Origin: a virus
Direction: 5' to 3' (one strand)
Length of the DNA stretch: 36,939 bases
UHGV virus genome: UHGV-0114473
Part shown: piece after piece, positions 50 through 28,314 of the stretch
How positions within the stretch are numbered: the stretch's first letter is position 1
Layout of the letters: each line of letters begins with the position of its first letter
Translations under genes and position numbers: made by a program
The notes under the pieces: generated by a model
Databases searched by the model: none
Seen by the model: only the letters and a program-made list of their open reading frames with translations
Told to the model about the DNA's origin: nothing

Positions 50-2320
50 TTAATCTTCAGTCACATTATCCATAACTTTGAGGCACGCAACTAGACGATT
101 ATTGTTTCGTCTTTGCAATGCAGCCTCAAGGACTAAAGCCTCTTCATAACGGATACCATAACGTGAGCCTGCAGGAGTGACCAGAATATCTTCATATTCT
201 GGATCTGCCTCTTCTTCATACTCTTCTTCGACTTCTTGAAACTCTGTCTCGATGTACTCCTCTTCTACATCTTCAACTACAGGGACGCTCACGAATGGAT
301 TTTGCGCAAAAGGTGAACCATCTTCATTAAGAACAGGTATCATTTCCATTTTTGGAGTCTGATACTCTTCATTCACTACTCGTTTAATCCGTGTTCCGTC
401 TTCCAGTACCTCATCCTTTAATACCTGACGACTCTCAGTAACCATCACTGGTTTGCTTACAATTCGAGTTTTAGTAACCTGCACTGGAACTGTTGTTATG
501 CGAGTTTTAGTAACCATTACACCTTCGTTTGTCTGAACCTTAGTATATTGATCATCCCACTCGTCAAAGCAAAAGAATCCAAATCGGTGCACATCAAGCC
601 CATGACGTTCAAACGCCTCCTTTGCACGTTGAGCTATTACGCCAAAATGCCAACGAGCTCCGTCTTCTCCTTTTTCTTCTGTTCTGTCAAGATACTGAAA
701 TTGAACGAAGTCAACCTCTGACCATGCGTCAAGTATTGTGTCAGTGATTTCAAGAGGTGCAGTTTTAGCTCGCTCATCTGAAGTAACGGTAAAGGCTGTT
801 TGAGTGAATCCACCAGACCACACACGACCAGCAGTTCCGACCGTGCTATTACTGTTCTGTGAGTATGGTGTAATAGATGAGTCTACTCTCACAACCCCAT
901 CCCCCTTTGGAGATAGCCTCAAATCAATATCTGTGTCGCTTCCAGCAACGCCAACAGCAGGAGCATTAGATGCTGTCTGTGAGCGCATGGCTAGATAATT
1001 GGCAGGAACTGTAGGCCCAGACTCTATGGAAAATATAGGTAACCCAGACGATAATCGTGTAAATACTACGCCATTATCACTAAATAACATTCTGGTTGAT
1101 CTGGTTGCATCCTCCAAAACAGAGAGTATTTCAGAAGTTTTCTGATTTGAATTATTGTACCAAGTCATTGAGTGTCTATTACCAAAAGCAATTGCCACAC
1201 CTTGACCTGTTGATTCTCCGTCGGTTCCTTTAAGGCTATTGCTGCCAAATACGATGCCCTTCAGAAAGCGTGCTGTTTTCCCAGCAGTTTTGTCGTTAGC
1301 TATTATTCCAATTGCTGCCGATGCAGCATTCAACACTTCTCCAGCTTGGGTTAATTCACCACCTGAGCCTAACCATAATGCGTCAGTCTGACCGTTGGGG
1401 AACATTGAATTAGGATACAGTTCACGCTCATTCCCCCTGTTTGCTATATCAAGTTCAAGACCGTGACTTGCTCCGATTGTTCCTGCATTTCTTACAGTTG
1501 AACCATAAAGTGCCCATGCGCTAGACCTAACACCTGATGAATCATCGTTGTAAGCCATCCCGGCTACGGCAAGAGCAGCATTACCCGGTTCACCATCTCC
1601 AGTATGAGCAGATCCAAAAATTCCTATCCCATCTGGTGGGGCAATCCCAACATTTCTACAGTGTCGCTCTAAATAGAAATAAATATTTCCCCCTAGCCCT
1701 GCCATCCATGGCACTTGCCTTAACCAATACCCACCAATGAATGTAACATCCATTTCCATTTCCCACGATGTAAGTGGGTCTGAAACAATATCCTGACTTA
1801 ACAAATAAGTGCCAGCAGGAATATAAATTTTGCGCCTTGTCGCATTAGCCGCAAGAAAAGCTTCAGTAGAATCAACAACTCCTGTCGGGTCAGCACCTCC
1901 TGCAAAACCACTCCAAGTAACAGGCTTTGCTAATCCTCCGACAAATCCAGCTCCACCAGGACCCTCCAGTTCAGATCGCAGTTGATCAGGGTCATACTTC
2001 AGCACATTAGGAAAATAGAACTGCTGCGCACCATATGCATCATAAACAGCCATAGAATGACCTTGCACGGTAACGAATTTGGCAATCTGTCCGTTATATA
2101 CCGGATAACCAGCAGCGTTAATGATGATTGGTTGAGAAACAGGAACGTGAGAACCGTCTTCGTTCTCTACATAAACCTGAATCCGGTTTTCAGGATTTAC
2201 CGGGTCAGTGTCAATTTTACCGATATAAATTTTGCCATTGGCTACGGCTTTAAAAGAACGAGCCATAGTGAATAGTTGCGAAGGCATACTCACTACAACA
2301 TTAGCTGTAATGTCTGTCAT
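50..2320 (-). CDS. Tailspike/tail fibre: P22 gp9-like N-terminal head-binding domain, divergent receptor-binding domain, C-terminal intramolecular-chaperone-like region
   Basis: N-terminus [59 protein letters not shown] matches the P22 tailspike head-binding domain from memory. C-terminal region (…[27 protein letters not shown]…) resembles self-cleaving fibre chaperone domains, followed by TKTRIxxxPVxV repeats and an acidic tail. Confidence 0.85.
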
Positions 2321-2420: not shown

Positions 2421-3323
2421 TCAGTAGTTATGTACTGAAGGAGGTAATTCTTTATTCTTAAGTCTCATCCATGCGGAAAGATTCGTTGGTCCGTCTGGCT
2501 CATTAATATCAACATCTCTTGTGTGATTGATTAAAACGTCTCTCGCCATTCCGATAACATACGAGAATTCATGACCGTAGTCGTAGCATCTGCCGGAATA
2601 GTTCGATTGAATTTGTTTTAATGCCGGATACAGTTCACGGAATAATGCCTGTGAGCGGTTGGCATAATCCCATAACCATACAAGGCTGTTTGCTTCTTTC
2701 GCAGAAAGCTCGTTGGTTTTCTTCTCTTGTTTGCCAATGAACTCACCTTCAAGCACTACCCTGTGGATGTACTCTACGGCTTGCGGTATCTGAGATGCAT
2801 CAAGCTCTTCAATACTGTCCACATTGAAACGCTGATGAATCATTGCATAAGCTTCTGGGTACATTAGATGCTTTTTGCTGACTAGCATATTTACAGCATC
2901 ACGAAGCGGAGTCCTGTCATCAACAGATGTTTTCTTACGTGCATTTTCTTCCTTTCCCTTTGTCCAGTAGTCATGCAGCACAGTAAAGCATTCTTCCTGG
3001 TACTGAATAAGTTTATCGCGGATGTCAGCACGAACTTTCTCAGGGTTGATGCTGAACAGCCACCCATTTAACTTCTTCAAAGGAAGGCAGAGTAACTTAC
3101 GAAGCTTCCCATCAGCGGCAACCATGTTCATATGAACACAGTTGAATTTGCTAATCTGCTTCATGAGTTTTGTTTGCTGCGTTGACCAGCTCATTCCAAG
3201 GTTTTCAACGATTGGCTTCATCGCAACATATGCAACTCCGACAGCCATGGCGGTGATAATTTGCTGACCGTTGAATGGTACGTAAGAGGTGTTCACTGCT
3301 TCTAAAATTGCTATACTATTCAT
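2421..3323 (-). CDS. ant: Antirepressor Ant (P22 immI type)
   Basis: Translation from [21 protein letters not shown]… gives 300 aa, the size of P22 Ant. GGAG Shine-Dalgarno 11 nt upstream; synteny arc-ant-tailspike. The ORF track starts 22 codons earlier at 3389. Confidence 0.8.
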
Positions 3324-3385
3324 GTTGGTTTTTCTCCACGGATTTACTGACAACCGAAGCCCTGACTGTTCCCGCAGTTGGGGCT

Positions 3386-3607
3386 TCACTGTTTTTGTAA
3401 GTCACTGTAGCTATAAAGCCACTGACCACTCATTTTTGATTTGATTGACTCTACTGAATCACGGCAAGGAATGATTCCACCTGACATCATTCTGATCTCC
3501 GTAAATTCACCACTCCTTATCGACTCAATGCCATTAACGTTAACTAAAGATTTACCTCTACCAAGTGCATTCTCATAGCCAATCTCATCAACCTCGATAA
3601 ACTTCAT
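3386..3607 (-). CDS. Hypothetical 73-aa protein between arc and ant
   Basis: ORF whose ATG overlaps the arc stop (ATGA), suggesting translational coupling. No recognisable motif; P22 has no gene at this spot. Confidence 0.4.
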
Positions 3608-19443: not shown

Positions 19444-19824
19444 CTACTGTTCGCTTAGCTTCTGCTTCAGCAAGTAACCTTCGAGCATCCAGATTTTGTT
19501 TACAGCATTTTGCCGGGCAATCTTCCGACCAATTTCTGCATCAAAGTTTTCCGGGCTTGCACAGGCACTCTCTCCGGTGACGGTGAAGCCATTCTTCAGC
19601 ACCAGTACGCAGAAAGTGAGCAACTTCAATGGTGATAAATCACGATCGCCTTCTTCTGGTTTTTCCCTGCCACAATATTCGTTGCTGGAAATGGCACCAT
19701 TTCGTCCATCATAAGCAGTAAAGTAATGCTCGCTTTTAATCACGTCTTCGATGTGCTGCGGGGTAACTCGCGGAGCGGTTTTGCCTTTCTCAACGATTTC
19801 TTTTTCGATTTGCTGGTCGTTCAT
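19444..19824 (-). CDS. N4 gp49 / Sf6 gp66 family protein
   Basis: 126 aa; motifs …HYFTAYDG…LTFCVLVLKNGFTVTGESACASPENFDAEIGRKIARQNAVNKIW… recalled as the Phage_gp49_66 family. Confidence 0.55.
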   Translation of the reverse strand: MNDQQIEKEIVEKGKTAPRVTPQHIEDVIKSEHYFTAYDGRNGAISSNEYCGREKPEEGDRDLSPLKLLTFCVLVLKNGFTVTGESACASPENFDAEIGRKIARQNAVNKIWMLEGYLLKQKLSEQ

Positions 19825-20002
19825 AATTATGACCCTGTGGAGTGGTTGCTTGATTAGGATGTCTTTCCATCAGTCCGCCACCACAAAGAATCTTTTTTGC
19901 CATAAGGCAGGAGGTTCATCTTTCAGTGGCTGCCAGTGTTATTTCCCCACTTACTGGCTTGGGTTGTTTCGTGGTACTGCCGTTAATTGATGAGTCCGGG
20001 GA

Positions 20003-20488
20003 TTATTTCAGTTCGTTACCAGGCATTTCTTTTAGCTCTTTCAAATGACAACGATTGAGACTAAACCACTCCCCGTGCGACCTATAGTTGTAATATTTTT
20101 GGTGCAATTTGGTTTCAAGCTCTCTATCGGCCGGAATCTTTGCAATTAGATTTAGCTTCCCACCACTCATGCGAGATATCTCTGAAATTCGTTTATTAAC
20201 CCTGCGACTAAACCCTATTTTTGTTAGCCCACTATCTTCAGCATGCAGAACGTACACATATGATTTTTGCGAAGCACTGGGTGCGACTTTGTTGTAATTA
20301 ATCATGTCAAACATGAAGCCTTGCTTTAGCAAAGTTTCAAAAAAGATAGAATTAACACACCCATTCCTTCTCAGCTCTGCACTTAGCTTGTCAATTTCCT
20401 CTATGATGTCGCCAGACCCCTTTCCACTTATAAGAAAATCTTGGTACATGCGACCAATTCTTGAGGTAATTTCAACAAAGTTATTCAT
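20003..20488 (-). CDS. T5orf172 (GIY-YIG-like) domain protein with unknown N-terminal domain
   Basis: C-terminal half YVYVLHAEDSGLTKIGFSRRVNKRISEISRMSGGKLNLIAKIPADRELETKLHQKYYNYRSHGEWFSL fits the T5orf172/MUG113 pattern (YVY…KIG…R…GEWF). The gene is visibly AT-rich. Confidence 0.6.
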   Translation of the reverse strand: MNNFVEITSRIGRMYQDFLISGKGSGDIIEEIDKLSAELRRNGCVNSIFFETLLKQGFMFDMINYNKVAPSASQKSYVYVLHAEDSGLTKIGFSRRVNKRISEISRMSGGKLNLIAKIPADRELETKLHQKYYNYRSHGEWFSLNRCHLKELKEMPGNELK

Positions 20489-20632
20489 AGCGTTTACCTT
20501 TTAGAAAGATGAGCCTGTTCGCACAGAAAAGCCGCCCCGAGATGGTCGCCACCATATACGGCAGTTCTCAGGCTCAGCTTTCTGAAAGACTCGGGATTGT
20601 TACGCGCTGCGATGCGCGGTTTACTGCAGATG

Positions 20633-20657
20633 TAAAAAAGCCCCGCAAATGCGAGGC
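20633..20657 (-). terminator. Rho-independent terminator in the Rz-T5orf172 spacer
   Basis: Minus strand: CCTCGC-ATTT-GCGGGG (one G·U pair) followed by CTTTTTTACA. Confidence 0.5.
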
Positions 20658-20831
20658 TAAATCCTGGTGTTTGTTATGACTGGCTCTTATCTCAACGCAG
20701 CCCCTTACCGCGCGCCAGATGCTCAATATCAAGCATCAGCAATGAGATGTTTAATCTGGATTCACTCCAGAAGTGATCACCACCCTGTCTACAGAGCCAG
20801 ATGTGAAGGATGATGAGTAAAATTATCGCTA

Positions 20832-21299
20832 TCATCGAAGGCATTGCGTCCTGATGTACTCCTGAAGCGTTCTCAGTGCTGTTTGGTCGCGGATAATTCC
20901 GTCCCGGACACCGAGAACGTTTCGTCCAGCAACTGGAGAGAGTTCGACGGTGGCATCATTGCCCATGCCGGAGGCGCTGGAGGTTTCGGCTGAGGATGGC
21001 ACAGGGCATTTTCCTTTGACGAGCACCCTGCCACCATTATCAAGCTTGCGCCGAAGAGCATCATTTTCAGCTTTCGCATCAGCTAACTCCTTCGTGTATT
21101 TAGCATCGAGTGCATCAGCAGTACGCTGGCGCTGCTGCATGTCAGTAATGGTGGCAGTCGCCTGCTTCAGCTCACTGACTTTTTTATCGCGCTGCTCTTT
21201 GTAGGCGATGGCGTTATCACGGTAGTGATTAACAGCCCATGACAGGCAAACGATGATGCAGATAACCAGAGCGGAGATAATCGCGGTTACTCTGCTCAT
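20832..21299 (-). CDS. Rz: Rz i-spanin
   Basis: N-terminus [31 protein letters not shown] matches lambda Rz (signal-anchor TM), then coiled-coil; follows the endolysin gene. Confidence 0.85.
20873..21079 (-). CDS. Rz1: Rz1 o-spanin lipoprotein (embedded in Rz, +1 frame)
   Basis: [21 protein letters not shown]… with lipobox LIMVAG|C and a Pro-rich segment [11 protein letters not shown], like lambda Rz1. Confidence 0.8.
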
Positions 21300-22321: not shown

Positions 22322-22397
22322 TGGTGCTGGTTAACGGACTTGAACCGCTACCCATTCGCTTACAAGGCGACTGCTCTACCATTGGAGCTAAACCAGC
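22322..22397 (-). tRNA. tRNA-Thr (anticodon UGU)
   Basis: Hand-folded cloverleaf of the minus strand: GCTGGTT acceptor, GCTC/GAGC D-stem, anticodon loop CTTGTAA, T-arm AGCGG-TTCAAGT-CCGTT, 3' AACCAGC-A-CCA. One A·G at 27-43. Confidence 0.7.
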
Positions 22398-22402
22398 ATG
22401 TT

Positions 22403-22477
22403 TGGCGGGACAGCGTGGACTCGAACCACGATAAGAAGGTTAACAGCCTTCCGTAATGACCTTTATACGACTGACCC
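22403..22477 (-). tRNA. tRNA-Asn (anticodon GUU)
   Basis: Hand-folded: GAAGG-CTGTTAA-CCTTC anticodon arm, CGTGG-TTCGAGT-CCACG T-arm (same as the E. coli tRNA-Asn loop), discriminator G + CCA. One U·U mismatch in the acceptor stem and one in the D stem; 4-nt variable loop. Confidence 0.6.
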
Positions 22478-23919: not shown

Positions 23920-24206
23920 GGCTTAATCTTCCCCTCCTTCAGCAGTATCGCCTGCGTCCTGATCACGCCTTCGAGGTGGTAAAGTCTGGCGTCTTTGTTG
24001 TCGAGGTTATGGGTGCGTCGGTCGATTTCATCGTGACACGCGCTACAAGCCCATGCGCCGATCAGGTCGTCAGGCTTCATTCCCGTTCCGCAAATTCCAG
24101 CCATCCGGTAATGTGCCAGAACTGTAGTTTCAGGATTGCCATTGCATACGCCGTAAATACGTACCTGGCATTCTCTGCCGCGTGCTTCTTTGCGTAGATT
24201 AGCCAT
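23916..24206 (-). CDS. ybcO: YbcO-like DUF1364 putative nuclease
   Basis: 96 aa; RGRECQVRIYGVCNGNPETTVLAHYRMAGICGTGMKPDDLIGAWACSACHDEIDRR resembles DLP12 YbcO; precedes rusA as in DLP12. Confidence 0.65.
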   Translation of the reverse strand: MANLRKEARGRECQVRIYGVCNGNPETTVLAHYRMAGICGTGMKPDDLIGAWACSACHDEIDRRTHNLDNKDARLYHLEGVIRTQAILLKEGKIKP

Positions 24207-24928
24207 TAAGCAGCCTCCCCGGTTACTTTCAGCATTCCGTTATCGAGCAGCTTTCTGGTCAGCCACTGTTGACCACGCCCGGTGATTTTTGTGGTGAACG
24301 ATATCTGTATTCCGTGATTTGTGTTGACCGCTGTTTCTTTCACTGTGAAATAGCCGCGATCCATATATTCCTGCATTGGCACATTGCGCCGGGAACCTGA
24401 AGCAATAAGGATTTTGTGATCGCGCATCCACGCAAACAGTTTGTTTGGACCAATTCCAACAACCTTTGCAAAGTTTCCAATCAAAATTCCGCTGGCCTCG
24501 CCAACGCGATCGGCAAACTCAACTTTAGGTGCGGCAATTGCGAGCTGGTTTTCCAGTTGCATTTTCTGCTCAGCAAGATCAGCAGCAAGGCGCAACGCTT
24601 CTGGTAGCGTTTTGGGGATATTAACCGCAGCTTCTTCAAGCTCTCGCCAACGGTCAACAAGACGAGCGGTGAATTCCGGCGACAACTGAGCGACGACAAT
24701 AATGCTGTCTCGCTTACCTTGTTCGCCCTCAAAAACGTAAGCCTCTACGCCACGAAGTAATCCTAAGTTATTGATTTTTTCGAAAACCACCATTGGGGGA
24801 TTTCGGATCACACCTCGAGCCGCCAGTCGTTCAATAGATTGTTTCACCTTGTCATGACGACTTCCCACCAACTCAGCGATTTCAATGCTTGTCATTTTGA
24901 TGGCATTGCCATTTATTAACTCATTCAT
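24206..24928 (-). CDS. Rha-family regulator / antirepressor with C-terminal KilAC-like domain
   Basis: 240 aa; N-terminus [35 protein letters not shown] (Rha-like HTH), C-terminal half typical of phage antirepressors. Confidence 0.65.
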   Translation of the reverse strand: MNELINGNAIKMTSIEIAELVGSRHDKVKQSIERLAARGVIRNPPMVVFEKINNLGLLRGVEAYVFEGEQGKRDSIIVVAQLSPEFTARLVDRWRELEEAAVNIPKTLPEALRLAADLAEQKMQLENQLAIAAPKVEFADRVGEASGILIGNFAKVVGIGPNKLFAWMRDHKILIASGSRRNVPMQEYMDRGYFTVKETAVNTNHGIQISFTTKITGRGQQWLTRKLLDNGMLKVTGEAA

Positions 24929-25920: not shown

Positions 25921-28314
25921 TCATACGTCAGCCCCTTGTGCATATCGTCTGCCACGTGCAGCAGGTGCATTTGATGTTGTGCAAATCTGTCTGGCTTCAT
26001 CCTGGTCACATGCAACAAAGTGTCCGTTGCAGAACCGCTGGTAAACCGTACCAAGCGAGCCAAAACGGTTTTTTGTCACAATGATTTCAGCAAATGGCGC
26101 GGCGCTACTGTTCTCGTCATATACCGCTTCCCGATAGAGCATGATGATTGAGTCTGCGTCCTGTTCAATGCTTCCTGAATCACGCAAATCTGCGTTTGTC
26201 GGGCGTTTGTTTGGTCGCTTCTCAACATCGCGCGAAAGCTGACTCAGGGAGATAACAGGCGTTTTCAGGTCTTTCGCCATCGCCTTCAGGCTTCCGGAGA
26301 TGTGAGCAATTGCGAGATCGTTGCGATCTGCTTTAGGCTTCTCAATCAGGCCAAGATAATCCACCATGATGAGTGACAGGTTTGGATTTTCCTGTTTATG
26401 CCGTTCTGCGATTGAGCGTATTTCTTCGACCGATAACCGAGAGGCATCGACTACCCATACATCCAAATCTGCAAGCTGACTCATGCCGTTAGCAACACGC
26501 GCCCAGCCTTCGTCATCCATCGATGCAGGATTTCGCAGTACGCTAACCGACATCCTCCCGGCGTTGGCAATGCTTCGCTCTGCAATCTGCAATGCGCTCA
26601 TTTCCATTGAGAAAATCAATACCCCGCGCCGGACGTCAGAACCAGGAATAACGCGGCTTGCCACGCCTTCGGCAATCTTCAGCGCCAGTTCCGTATTGTG
26701 CGTAACGATGTAATCCGTTGTCACATAGAGATGACTAGGATGGCTTACCATGATGCAGAGACACTCTTCTGGCTCAACAACTTCAACCGATTTGATACCC
26801 ACACCAAGGTTACCAAGCCTGTTAATCCCGAGATTTTTACGTAAACGTGGTGAGTGAATTTGCTCTATCAAAGATGATGGCAACTTCATGCTGACCATGT
26901 GTGCGTCAAGTCCGGCATGCTTCTCTCCTTTGTACGTGTAAACTATTCCCGTCCTGCTGGATTCTTTGGCGGTTCCACCTAAAGATCTAACAAGCCTTAC
27001 TAATCCTTTAGCTAATTTCTGACTTGATGAACTAAAGCGGATGCATCCGGACTTCTCAACCCAGCCATCTGTCTCGAGCAGGCCAGTTAAAACACCGGTA
27101 CGTATTTCTTTGCTAGCACTAAAAATTTCTTCTGGGATTTCCTTCTCGGACGCACCTTTCCCGATCACCCCAATGCCACGTAGTTTGTCCAATAGTGGGT
27201 TCTTCTGGCCTTTTTGGTTACTTATCAAATAATCATTCTCTCCTACCTTAACCAGTCGCAGTGGTGCAATTGCATCACTCATGCGGCTCAGGACATATTC
27301 TTCCGAGTTGGTGAATTTGATGCCTTTTATCAACGAACCGTCACCAAGTAGAGCCCCAATAACCCAACCATCAAGGGGAATATTTTTACCAAAGTCTCCG
27401 GTCAAGGATGGCACTCTTATTCTTCCCTGATAACGTGTTTTTTGTAGCATCCCAGCCAGCGCATCAGTATCAACAACGCGTTTACCAGTAAATCTTGATG
27501 ATGAAATTTCCCATAAGTGGTTGTCGGCACATTTCACGCTACGTCCGTCTTCAAAGGTGACTAAATATGTGAATTTCTTCCCTTGCGGGAAGACGCCAAT
27601 TACCTCCGAAGGAAGCCCGTCTATTGACGCGATGCGATCGCCAATTTTGACTTCTCCGTGAGTAGTCCAGGTGCCATCTGCAAGTAAAATCCCTTCGCTT
27701 AGCGCCATTGCTTTCCCCATACCAGGACGAGCAGCGATTATCACAAGGTCTTCTGCGTTCATCCCTCCGGTGATGGCATCAAGTTCTTCGATTCCGGTCT
27801 TCAGGGTATCTGACTCTTCTCCGTTCCTCAGACGCCTGTCAAGCGTGTCAGTGTAGTCAGTGATGATTTCCCCTAACCGCACCGGTTTAACCTCGTCACG
27901 GGGCTTTCTGATGGCTGAGAGACGCTTTACAAGCTCATCCATCGCCTGACTCGATGCGTCGATGGTTCCGCTCCGAATTGGTTCACGCATTTCATCCATG
28001 ATTTCCAGCACCAGACGGCGGTGATAGTTATCCGCGACCATTCCGGCATATCCCTTCAGGTTTGCGGCACTCGGGCAGTTTTTGCTGGTCATCAGGATTG
28101 ACGTGAAATGCTCCTCTCCGCACTCCTCGGCAACCAGCAGCGCGTCGATTAGGTTTCTGTTTCTCGCCTGCTTGCGGATAACCTCGAAGGCTTTTCTGTA
28201 GAGCGGAATTGAAAACGCTTCCGGCTCAAGCGTTGCCAGAACGTCACTGGCGGTTGGAGTTAATCCACCAATCAGCAAGCCACCGATAACGCTCGCTTCG
28301 ATATCCTGTCTCAT
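25921..28314 (-). CDS. DnaB-like replicative helicase (P22 gene 12 type) interrupted by an intein
   Basis: Exteins total 458 aa (201 + 257), the size of P22 gp12. The Walker A is split as …ARPGMGK[339-aa insert][10 protein letters not shown]…; C-terminal DnaB motifs ([31 protein letters not shown]) are intact. Confidence 0.85.
26695..27711 (-). mobile_element. Intein with LAGLIDADG homing-endonuclease domain inside the helicase P-loop
   Basis: In-frame 339-aa insert between GMGK and T. It ends …YIVTHN before Thr+1 and carries two LAGLIDADG-type motifs ([15 protein letters not shown] and [11 protein letters not shown]). The first residue appears to be Ala. Confidence 0.75.

Follow-up and report, generated by a model that had tools for sequence, protein, structure and literature searches.

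The viral genome UHGV-0114473 (36,939 nucleotides; the whole of this stretch is called the window below) is a P22-like E. coli prophage whose nearest relatives are phiv205-1 and CUS-3. Between its lysis and packaging genes lies an open reading frame (ORF) of 161 amino acids (aa), 20003-20488 on the minus strand, whose predicted product joins an HkbL-like domain to a T5orf172 domain. Comparison with related phages indicates that the classical rha locus of lambdoid phages holds exchangeable cargo, of which this gene is one allele. Here the enigmatic Rha and KilA-N proteins have predicted nucleases of the T5orf172 and HNH_3 families as allelic alternatives, and one covariation-supported leader RNA at the lysis/packaging junction precedes them all. 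As far as could be found in the searchable literature, neither the allelism of this gene to rha and kilA-hkbL nor the HkbL-like plus T5orf172 architecture has been described. The leader is likewise undescribed there, and is a candidate new RNA family.

The gene alone adds little, as it encodes a small, catalogued T5orf172 protein. Public databases already contain the gene with its assignment to this family, of which it is an ordinary member. The leader, which occurs in roughly one in six complete E. coli genomes, is more interesting than the gene itself. The shared-leader framework bears on the control of possibly toxic late accessory genes and on why the lysis/packaging junction is a mosaic boundary. 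It also raises the question of whether temperate enterobacterial phages owe their exchange of modules to small nucleases, a role proposed earlier for such enzymes in lytic vibriophages.

Exchange of reading frames at a fixed slot

The features of the slot, with the evidence for each, are as follows.

20003-20488, minus strand: cargo ORF for a two-domain HkbL-like and T5orf172 protein (ORF listing, Pfam, PHROG, tblastn)
19984-20669, no strand assigned: whole cassette of terminator, leader and ORF, relative to the empty Sf6 site (pairwise blastn)
20639-20658, minus strand: intrinsic terminator, a hairpin (AGCCTCGCATTTGCGGGGCT) with a T run behind it, which forms the upstream edge of the cassette; retained in occupied slots
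20483-20594, minus strand: conserved structured leader, a long hairpin followed by the Shine-Dalgarno sequence and start codon (covariance model R1, 109 bits)
20497-20500, minus strand: Shine-Dalgarno sequence AAGG, 8 nucleotides (nt) before the ATG and directly 3' of the leader hairpin
19858-19992, no strand assigned: 3' flank of the slot, conserved irrespective of the cargo (97% identity in HK620 and HK106; blastn)
20692-20844, minus strand: 50-aa ORF homologous to Sf6 gene 65 and epsilon34 gp67, between Rz and the terminator

A preliminary description, made from the nucleotide sequence alone, had placed an AT-rich gene for a 161-aa protein between Rz and the gp66-like and TerS genes. The ORF listing returned it at exactly 20003-20488, from ATG to stop, with the neighbours as described: Q, holin, endolysin and Rz (PF03245) upstream, and gp49/66 (PF13876), DUF2560, Sf6-type TerS and TerL downstream. 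At 38.9%, its guanine plus cytosine (GC) content is lower than that of the window as a whole (47.1%), Rz (52.8%), the gp49/66 gene (46.7%) and its own leader (51.1%). The gene does not adjoin Rz directly, however, since the 50-aa ORF at 20692-20844, the terminator and the leader of about 150 nt lie in between.

Salmonella phages epsilon34 (gp68, YP_002533529), g341c (gp64) and NM-3 encode a 100% identical protein (tblastn), labelled "GIY-YIG nuclease family protein" in RefSeq, and in epsilon34 and g341c the same gene stands in the same place after Rz and the terminator. It also does so as WP_001058931.1, the E. coli copy; E. coli copies are about 99% identical to the window protein. Of 5426 complete E. 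coli genomes, 49 (about 1%), among them strain W and some DH5alpha assemblies, have a region of about 1 kb containing the gene, and the protein cluster that holds the 161-aa product has 249 members. Recurrence in three phages, in this cluster and in 49 E. coli genomes marks the ORF as a real gene rather than a chance reading frame. The protein belongs to PHROG 4284, for which the function is listed as unknown, and the gene is not discussed in the epsilon34 genome paper (PMC2629481).

Sf6 lacks the gene, and in comparison with it the window has 686 bp (19984-20669) in place of 114 unrelated bp (blastn). Relative to HK620, SPN3UB and Salmonella phage 29485, which carry KilA-N genes in the slot, homology extends to position 20484, five bases inside the ORF, and restarts at 19993, ten bases beyond the stop codon (blastn). 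The exchanged unit coincides exactly with the ORF, beginning at ATGAA and ending 10 nt beyond the stop codon. The location is a variable one, as had been proposed, with the gene absent from Sf6 at the same site and swapped elsewhere. Its description as a moron holds in part: the replacement of 114 bp by 686 bp and the deviant GC content agree with it, but a consensus scan found no promoter for the gene and the terminator lies upstream. It is an accessory and not a core gene, given its presence in 49 of 5426 E. coli genomes and its absence from Sf6, and the nuclease motif residues are retained.

In the HK97-like siphovirus HK106 both flanks show 84-97% DNA identity to the window, whereas the T5orf172 protein is only 31% identical. 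The identical protein adjoins Sf6-type packaging genes in one E. coli strain and P22-type packaging genes in another. Between epsilon34 and E. coli prophages the block of about 1 kb shows 98-100% identity, but the neighbouring Rz region only 47-73%. More distant homologues (about 60% and about 30% identical) occupy this post-lysis position as well, in phages whose holin, Q and terminase families differ; the exception is one divergent homologue located among tail genes. The gene is polymorphic in presence at a fixed site next to terS and terL, as free-standing homing endonuclease genes are.

A conserved terminator and structured leader

T5orf172, KilA-N and Rha genes are all preceded by this terminator and by a conserved stretch of about 150 nt that runs down to ACGCTATGAA, and the leader of the window is up to 99.4% identical to that of phages carrying Rha or KilA-N instead. 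In every occupied slot examined the terminator is kept with compensatory changes, and the empty Sf6 site has no such terminator. The only good terminator is 5' of the gene and not 3' of it, and homologues have the same layout. No sigma-70-like promoter was found on the coding strand upstream of the gene in a consensus scan. In the minimum-energy fold of the window sequence the Shine-Dalgarno sequence lies partly within the leader hairpin. Cargo of the rha locus is defined here as an ORF that begins at the conserved ATG, behind the terminator and leader and after the lysis genes; the ORF at 20003-20488 has each of these properties (alignments A5 and A6).

Pairing in the hairpin is supported by covariation. 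Among 13 hand-picked leaders, 84.6% of cells are paired, against at most 53% when the partners are slid, and double-sided changes are found in 20 cells, against at most 9. A larger set of 69 copies (63 distinct) was taken from species-representative genomes across Enterobacterales and aligned with the covariance model. Here 93% of cells are paired, a figure somewhat inflated by the fitting of the alignment to the model, compared with at most 50% for slid partners. Double-sided changes occur at 23 of 27 pairs and in 315 cells (at most 35 with slid partners). The covariation score is 0.50, that of slid partners at most 0.11, and none of 500 shuffles reaches the observed values.

Copies of the leader occur in 165 phage records and in about 60 species of Enterobacterales; of 5426 complete E. 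coli genomes, 925 have it. Besides the copy at 20483-20660 on the minus strand of the window, copies are catalogued as L002, L006, L007, L009, L010, L013, L015-L022 and L024-L085. Pattern matches in L023 and L039 (2 of 63 in species genomes) were not confirmed by the covariance model and are attributed to chance. Rfam gave no match to the leader at E<=1 on 19800-20900, nor at gathering score over the whole window. No consensus site for integration host factor (IHF) is present in 20486-20662, and counts over the window are at chance level. Candidate functions for the leader are those of a translational gate, an RNase III site or an attenuator.

High-scoring leader copies were also seen in metagenome-assembled genomes labelled Cellvibrionaceae, Nanosynbacter, Bacillota and Collinsella (L038, L041, L063 and L067), of which L038 also holds an identical T5orf172 gene. 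These non-enterobacterial assemblies are likely to be contaminated bins.

Cargo genes behind the leader

ORFs starting at the conserved ATG were surveyed behind 62 leaders. Most are 160-180 aa long, and their Pfam domains are as follows.

Phage_pRha: 31 ORFs
KilA-N: 15 ORFs (10 with ORF11CD3)
HNH_3: 7 ORFs (2 with AP2)
T5orf172/MUG113: 4 ORFs
P63C: 3 ORFs
Bro-N: 2 ORFs (1 with ANT)

In E. coli, 60 evenly spaced records among the 925 with a leader gave Rha in 44, GIY-YIG in 8, KilA-N in 5 and none of these in 3. The phi80 rha gene, annotated as "DNA synthesis inhibition in IHF- hosts" (PMC4936722), begins at the same conserved ATG. A second, unrelated nuclease family occupies the position in the form of HNH_3 cargo, some of it with AP2 or helix-turn-helix (HTH) domains, which starts at the same ATG (L084 5049-5555, L080 435-920, L068 1771-2256 and L059 4941-5540). 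HNH_3 with AP2 is a recognised homing-endonuclease architecture (PMC10448857).

Some genomes have tandem leader-cargo units 1-2 kb apart (L026 3542-5700, L059 3529-5540 and L084 4944-7385; also L065, L066 and L068). Examples are KilA-N/ORF11CD3 followed by KilA-N/P63C, KilA-N followed by HNH_3 with HTH, and HNH_3 with AP2 followed by an unknown 143-aa ORF. The leader-cargo module is therefore stackable. According to Iyer and colleagues in 2002, these families reportedly form a set of DNA-binding domains shuffled among large DNA viruses and phages.

Domain organisation and predicted active site

20285-20488, minus strand: N-terminal domain, aa 1-68, acidic (isoelectric point, pI, 5.2), a predicted three-helix bundle with helices at aa 3-21, 25-41 and 47-68 (AlphaFold2 model, profiles)
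20006-20260, minus strand: C-terminal T5orf172/MUG113 domain, aa 77-161, pI 9.6, predicted beta-beta-alpha-beta-alpha-beta-alpha (Pfam, model)
20102-20254, minus strand (span): putative catalytic codons Y79 (20252-20254), K90 (20219-20221), R100 (20189-20191), E125 (20114-20116) and H129 (20102-20104), from alignment to Odn

The motifs on which the preliminary description had based its T5orf172 assignment are present, YVYVLH at aa 77-82, KIGFSRRVNKRISEISR at aa 90-106 and YRSHGEWFSL at aa 135-144, and the assignment is upheld by Pfam. MUG113 (PF13455; E=4.2e-13, 50.1 bits, cut-off 22.3) and T5orf172 (PF10544; E=1.1e-9, 39.2 bits, cut-off 20) together span aa 77-154, both above their curated cut-offs. 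The canonical GIY-YIG model PF01541 has no match at E<=1, and no NCBIfam model matched the protein. A confident AlphaFold2 model built from seven family members (predicted local distance difference test, pLDDT, 86.7) has an N-terminal three-helix bundle, a short linker and a beta-beta-alpha-beta-alpha-beta-alpha C-terminal domain. Its best viral structural matches are all T5orf172, MUG113, GIY-YIG or Bro C-terminal domains.

When the protein is aligned with Odn of Vibrio phage ICP1 (MAFFT, hhalign), Y79, K90, R100, E125 and H129 stand opposite Odn Y127, K138, R148, E180 and H184. These five residues are invariant in the family alignment A2 (homologues 59-97% identical) and are kept in HK106 gp64, P0020 and P0021, which are about 30% identical. 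That residues aligned with catalytic ones are conserved down to such low identity speaks for a functional active site in this predicted nuclease. Three residues characteristic of the GIY-YIG superfamily are kept in it: the tyrosine of the first motif (Y79), the arginine of helix 1 that is catalytic in these enzymes (R100) and the glutamate that binds metal in them (E125). The tyrosine of the second GIY-YIG motif is replaced, giving K90-I-G here and K138-V-G in Odn, so that the protein lacks a literal "YIG". Lysine for tyrosine at this position is typical of T5orf172, and the active enzyme Hpy188I also has lysine there.

The N-terminal region had been described as about 85 aa long and unrecognised. 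It is indeed matched by no Pfam family (none at E<=10 for the domain alone), but it is shorter, about 68-76 aa, and profile comparisons identify it as a homologue of HK620 HkbL and PHROG 875. The 161-aa protein matches phrog_875 at E=1.4e-6, a profile of the N-terminal domain matches HkbL-like proteins at E=4e-11, and hhalign against HK620 HkbL gives a probability of 98.5% (E=3e-15, 65 columns). The three-helix bundle came from the structure prediction that had been proposed for this domain. In 1.84 billion representative proteins the profile found only 12 relatives: a few T5orf172 fusions and, for the rest, separate proteins (PHROG 875) that are about 87 aa long and end in a basic tail. This stand-alone form is HkbL in HK620, and in 57 phage records its gene lies 3' of a KilA-N gene of 165 aa, which it overlaps by 4 bp, in the same slot. 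The HkbL-like module was considered as a unifying element of all cargo types and rejected, as it is found neither in Rha nor in the longer KilA-N proteins.

Several alleles are decayed or rearranged. In P0005, aa 1-107 are fused to DUF2560 through a deletion, with loss of E125, and in P0004 and P0007 the tail beyond aa 145 is replaced by unrelated sequence. P0014 was dropped as a distant homologue, being a chimera of a DUF1364-like piece, the N-terminus of Rz and the C-terminus of this protein. In P0016, an HkbL-like N-terminus is followed by a reverse-strand translation of a terminase gene. The chimeras P0014 and P0016 are likely to be artefacts of assembly or rearrangement.

Possible role in conflict between phages

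We suggest, tentatively and at somewhat less than even confidence, that the gene encodes an intact two-domain T5orf172 endonuclease carried as rha-locus cargo, with late, Q-dependent expression, a role in competition between phages and possibly a homing-like spread. A late-expressed conflict nuclease is favoured because the catalytic residues are intact, the layout resembles that of Odn, and a second nuclease family occurs in the same position. Without a promoter of its own and with a terminator in front, the gene would be silent in the lysogen. It would be transcribed only within the late operon, by a Q-modified, terminator-resistant RNA polymerase, which is the simplest expectation given the upstream terminator and the lack of a detectable promoter. 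The hairpin beside the Shine-Dalgarno sequence might limit or time translation, or might be a processing site or part of an attenuator. The protein would then cut DNA, with Y79 as general base, R100 and K90 in contact with the phosphate and E125 binding the metal, while the HkbL-like domain might provide recognition of a partner or target, or oligomerisation, rather than classical DNA binding. Its role would lie in competition among co-resident lambdoid phages and other mobile elements, where it may attack genomes without the gene or with a rival cargo allele. Recombinational repair through the conserved flanks would then copy the gene into the cut genome (intron-less homing), or the rival might simply be damaged.

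Known systems offer partial parallels. Odn (Gp88) also combines an N-terminal specificity domain with a C-terminal T5orf172 domain and has the aligned Tyr, Lys, Arg, Glu and His. It is an endonuclease in mobile-element conflict that cleaves DNA in vitro, and the E180A substitution abolishes cleavage (PMC8263062). Unlike the window protein, its N-terminal domain is an origin-binding RepA_N domain and not an HkbL-like helical bundle, and it is encoded at a CRISPR-Cas locus of a lytic myovirus under its own promoter; the overall match between the two proteins is weak (hhalign probability 22%). T5orf172 genes of phages are treated as homing endonucleases, lie near terminase in 35% of neighbourhoods and stand at boundaries of genetic exchange (PMC10448857). 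Those of ICP1, T5-like and other phages (Barth et al. 2023) share with the window gene the nuclease domain, variable presence, proximity to terminase and position at the boundaries of exchanged modules. The window protein is much smaller than their products, and it uses a shared leader and start codon instead of forming a free-standing insertion. The phi80/P22 rha locus and HK620 hkbK-hkbL have the same slot, terminator, leader and start codon, but Rha (Phage_pRha) and HkbK (KilA-N) are unrelated DNA-binding folds without nuclease motifs, and HkbL of HK620 is a polypeptide of its own, whose translation is coupled to that of KilA-N.

The defence protein SNIPE (DUF4041 and GIY-YIG) resembles the window protein in its C-terminal GIY-YIG-type nuclease, its essential catalytic glutamate and its need for restraint against its own DNA. 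It differs in being membrane-anchored and host-encoded, in containing DUF4041 and in acting on DNA that is being injected. Its untethered GIY-YIG nuclease domain is toxic (bioRxiv 10.1101/2025.11.03.685801), which would make tight insulation of the window gene sensible.

Several observations weigh against a conflict nuclease. The N-terminal domain is acidic and has no evident DNA-binding motif or zinc finger, which makes target recognition hard to account for, whereas 87% of the T5orf172 homing endonucleases in ICP1, T5-like and other phages carry CapR, DUF723 or DUF4397 zinc-finger repeats, of which the window protein has none. No target site for the predicted nuclease was identified. A link to solved GIY-YIG enzymes was obtained neither with Foldseek against the PDB (best E=0.46, not significant) nor with a sequence profile search of the PDB (0 matches), and PF01541 had no match at E<=1. 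The absence of a promoter is based on a consensus scan only. The HK106 flanks, kept around an ancient allele, look like long-term allelic diversity and not like recent homing, and the commonest alternative cargoes, Rha and KilA-N, are DNA-binding regulators and not nucleases.

In an alternative reading, the protein would be a sequence-specific DNA-binding regulator that does not cut, its T5orf172 domain merely binding DNA as in CapR, and that does the job of Rha or KilA-N/HkbL, for example in replication or late expression. Rha (at about 73% of sampled E. coli loci) and KilA-N use this leader, start codon and slot too, and the HkbL module is shared with the KilA-N cargo. Phi80 Rha is annotated as blocking DNA synthesis in IHF-deficient hosts (PMC4936722), CapR is a domesticated T5orf172 satellite protein acting as a repressor (PMC10448857), and many database names present T5orf172 as a "DNA-binding domain". 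Selection for binding alone would not be expected to hold the catalytic-aligned residues invariant to about 30% identity, however, and HNH_3 nucleases likewise occur as cargo; a regulator of this kind seems unlikely. We regard as less likely again a true moron, expressed from the prophage, whose nuclease would help the lysogen by degrading incoming phage DNA in defence or superinfection exclusion. An AT-rich accessory gene in a variable prophage slot would suit that role, GIY-YIG nucleases such as SNIPE do work in defence, and another phage has annotated anti-CRISPR genes in this region. Against it, there is no promoter-like site on the coding strand from the terminator to the ATG, a strong terminator and structured leader precede the gene, and the protein has no transmembrane or sensor domain. 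The defence context raised by the preliminary description found no support here: the one PADLOC match, to the candidate system PDC-S57 (E=4e-4, 18 bits), is weak and concerns the generic domain only, NCBIfam returned nothing, and the neighbours are lysis and packaging genes, so that membership of a defence system was rejected.

An accessory nuclease of the packaging machinery, comparable to the HNH proteins that aid terminase in HK97-like phages, is very improbable. Its position just upstream of the packaging genes is kept in several lineages, and late co-expression with terminase may be expected. Yet few genomes carry the gene (49 of 5426 in E. coli; Sf6, HK620 and most relatives lack it) and it is dispensable, the identical protein accompanies two terminase types, Rha or KilA-N can take its place, and HK106 encodes an HNH packaging protein in addition to its T5orf172 gene.

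A broader proposal would extend the conflict-nuclease reading to the whole locus. The terminator and leader might form an undescribed cis-regulatory RNA that gates, through translation, processing or attenuation, a hot-swappable late slot across Enterobacterales prophages. Its cargo (Rha, KilA-N/HkbL, Bro-N, P63C, HNH_3 and HkbL-T5orf172) would be potentially harmful DNA-targeting proteins for conflict between phages, with the T5orf172 and HNH_3 cargoes as homing-type nucleases that displace rivals via the flanks. We consider this doubtful as it stands; if true, it could explain the puzzling Rha phenotype as a failure of the gate.

Neighbouring genes and other features of the window

19444-19824, minus strand: gp49/66-family gene, within a separate 413-bp indel (19445-19857)

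The DNA of this independent indel, downstream of the slot, is lacking from epsilon34, E. coli W, HK620 and HK106, and the junction (19444|19858) is identical in all four.

In the nin region, a protein encoded at 24206-24928 (minus strand) has a Rha-like N-terminal domain and ANT/KilAC C-terminal domains and belongs to the same domain network as the cargo proteins. A DnaB-like helicase of 797 aa (25921-28314, minus strand) has its N- and C-terminal domains split by about 340 aa with a LAGLIDADG_3 match (E=8e-6, above cut-off); the insert is probably an intein with a homing endonuclease. Genes for tRNA-Thr (tgt) and tRNA-Asn (gtt) are located at 22322-22477 (minus strand) between the Q and holin genes, as in Sf6. 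The sar antisense RNA (3324-3390, plus strand; RF00262, 87.7 bits) overlaps the start of a P22-type antirepressor gene (2421-3389, minus strand; P22_AR_N/C), and this stretch is the immI region adjoining the tailspike gene. The tailspike (50-2320, minus strand) combines a P22-type head-binding domain with Peptidase_S74 (endosialidase chaperone), which suggests that it is capsule-specific like that of CUS-3.

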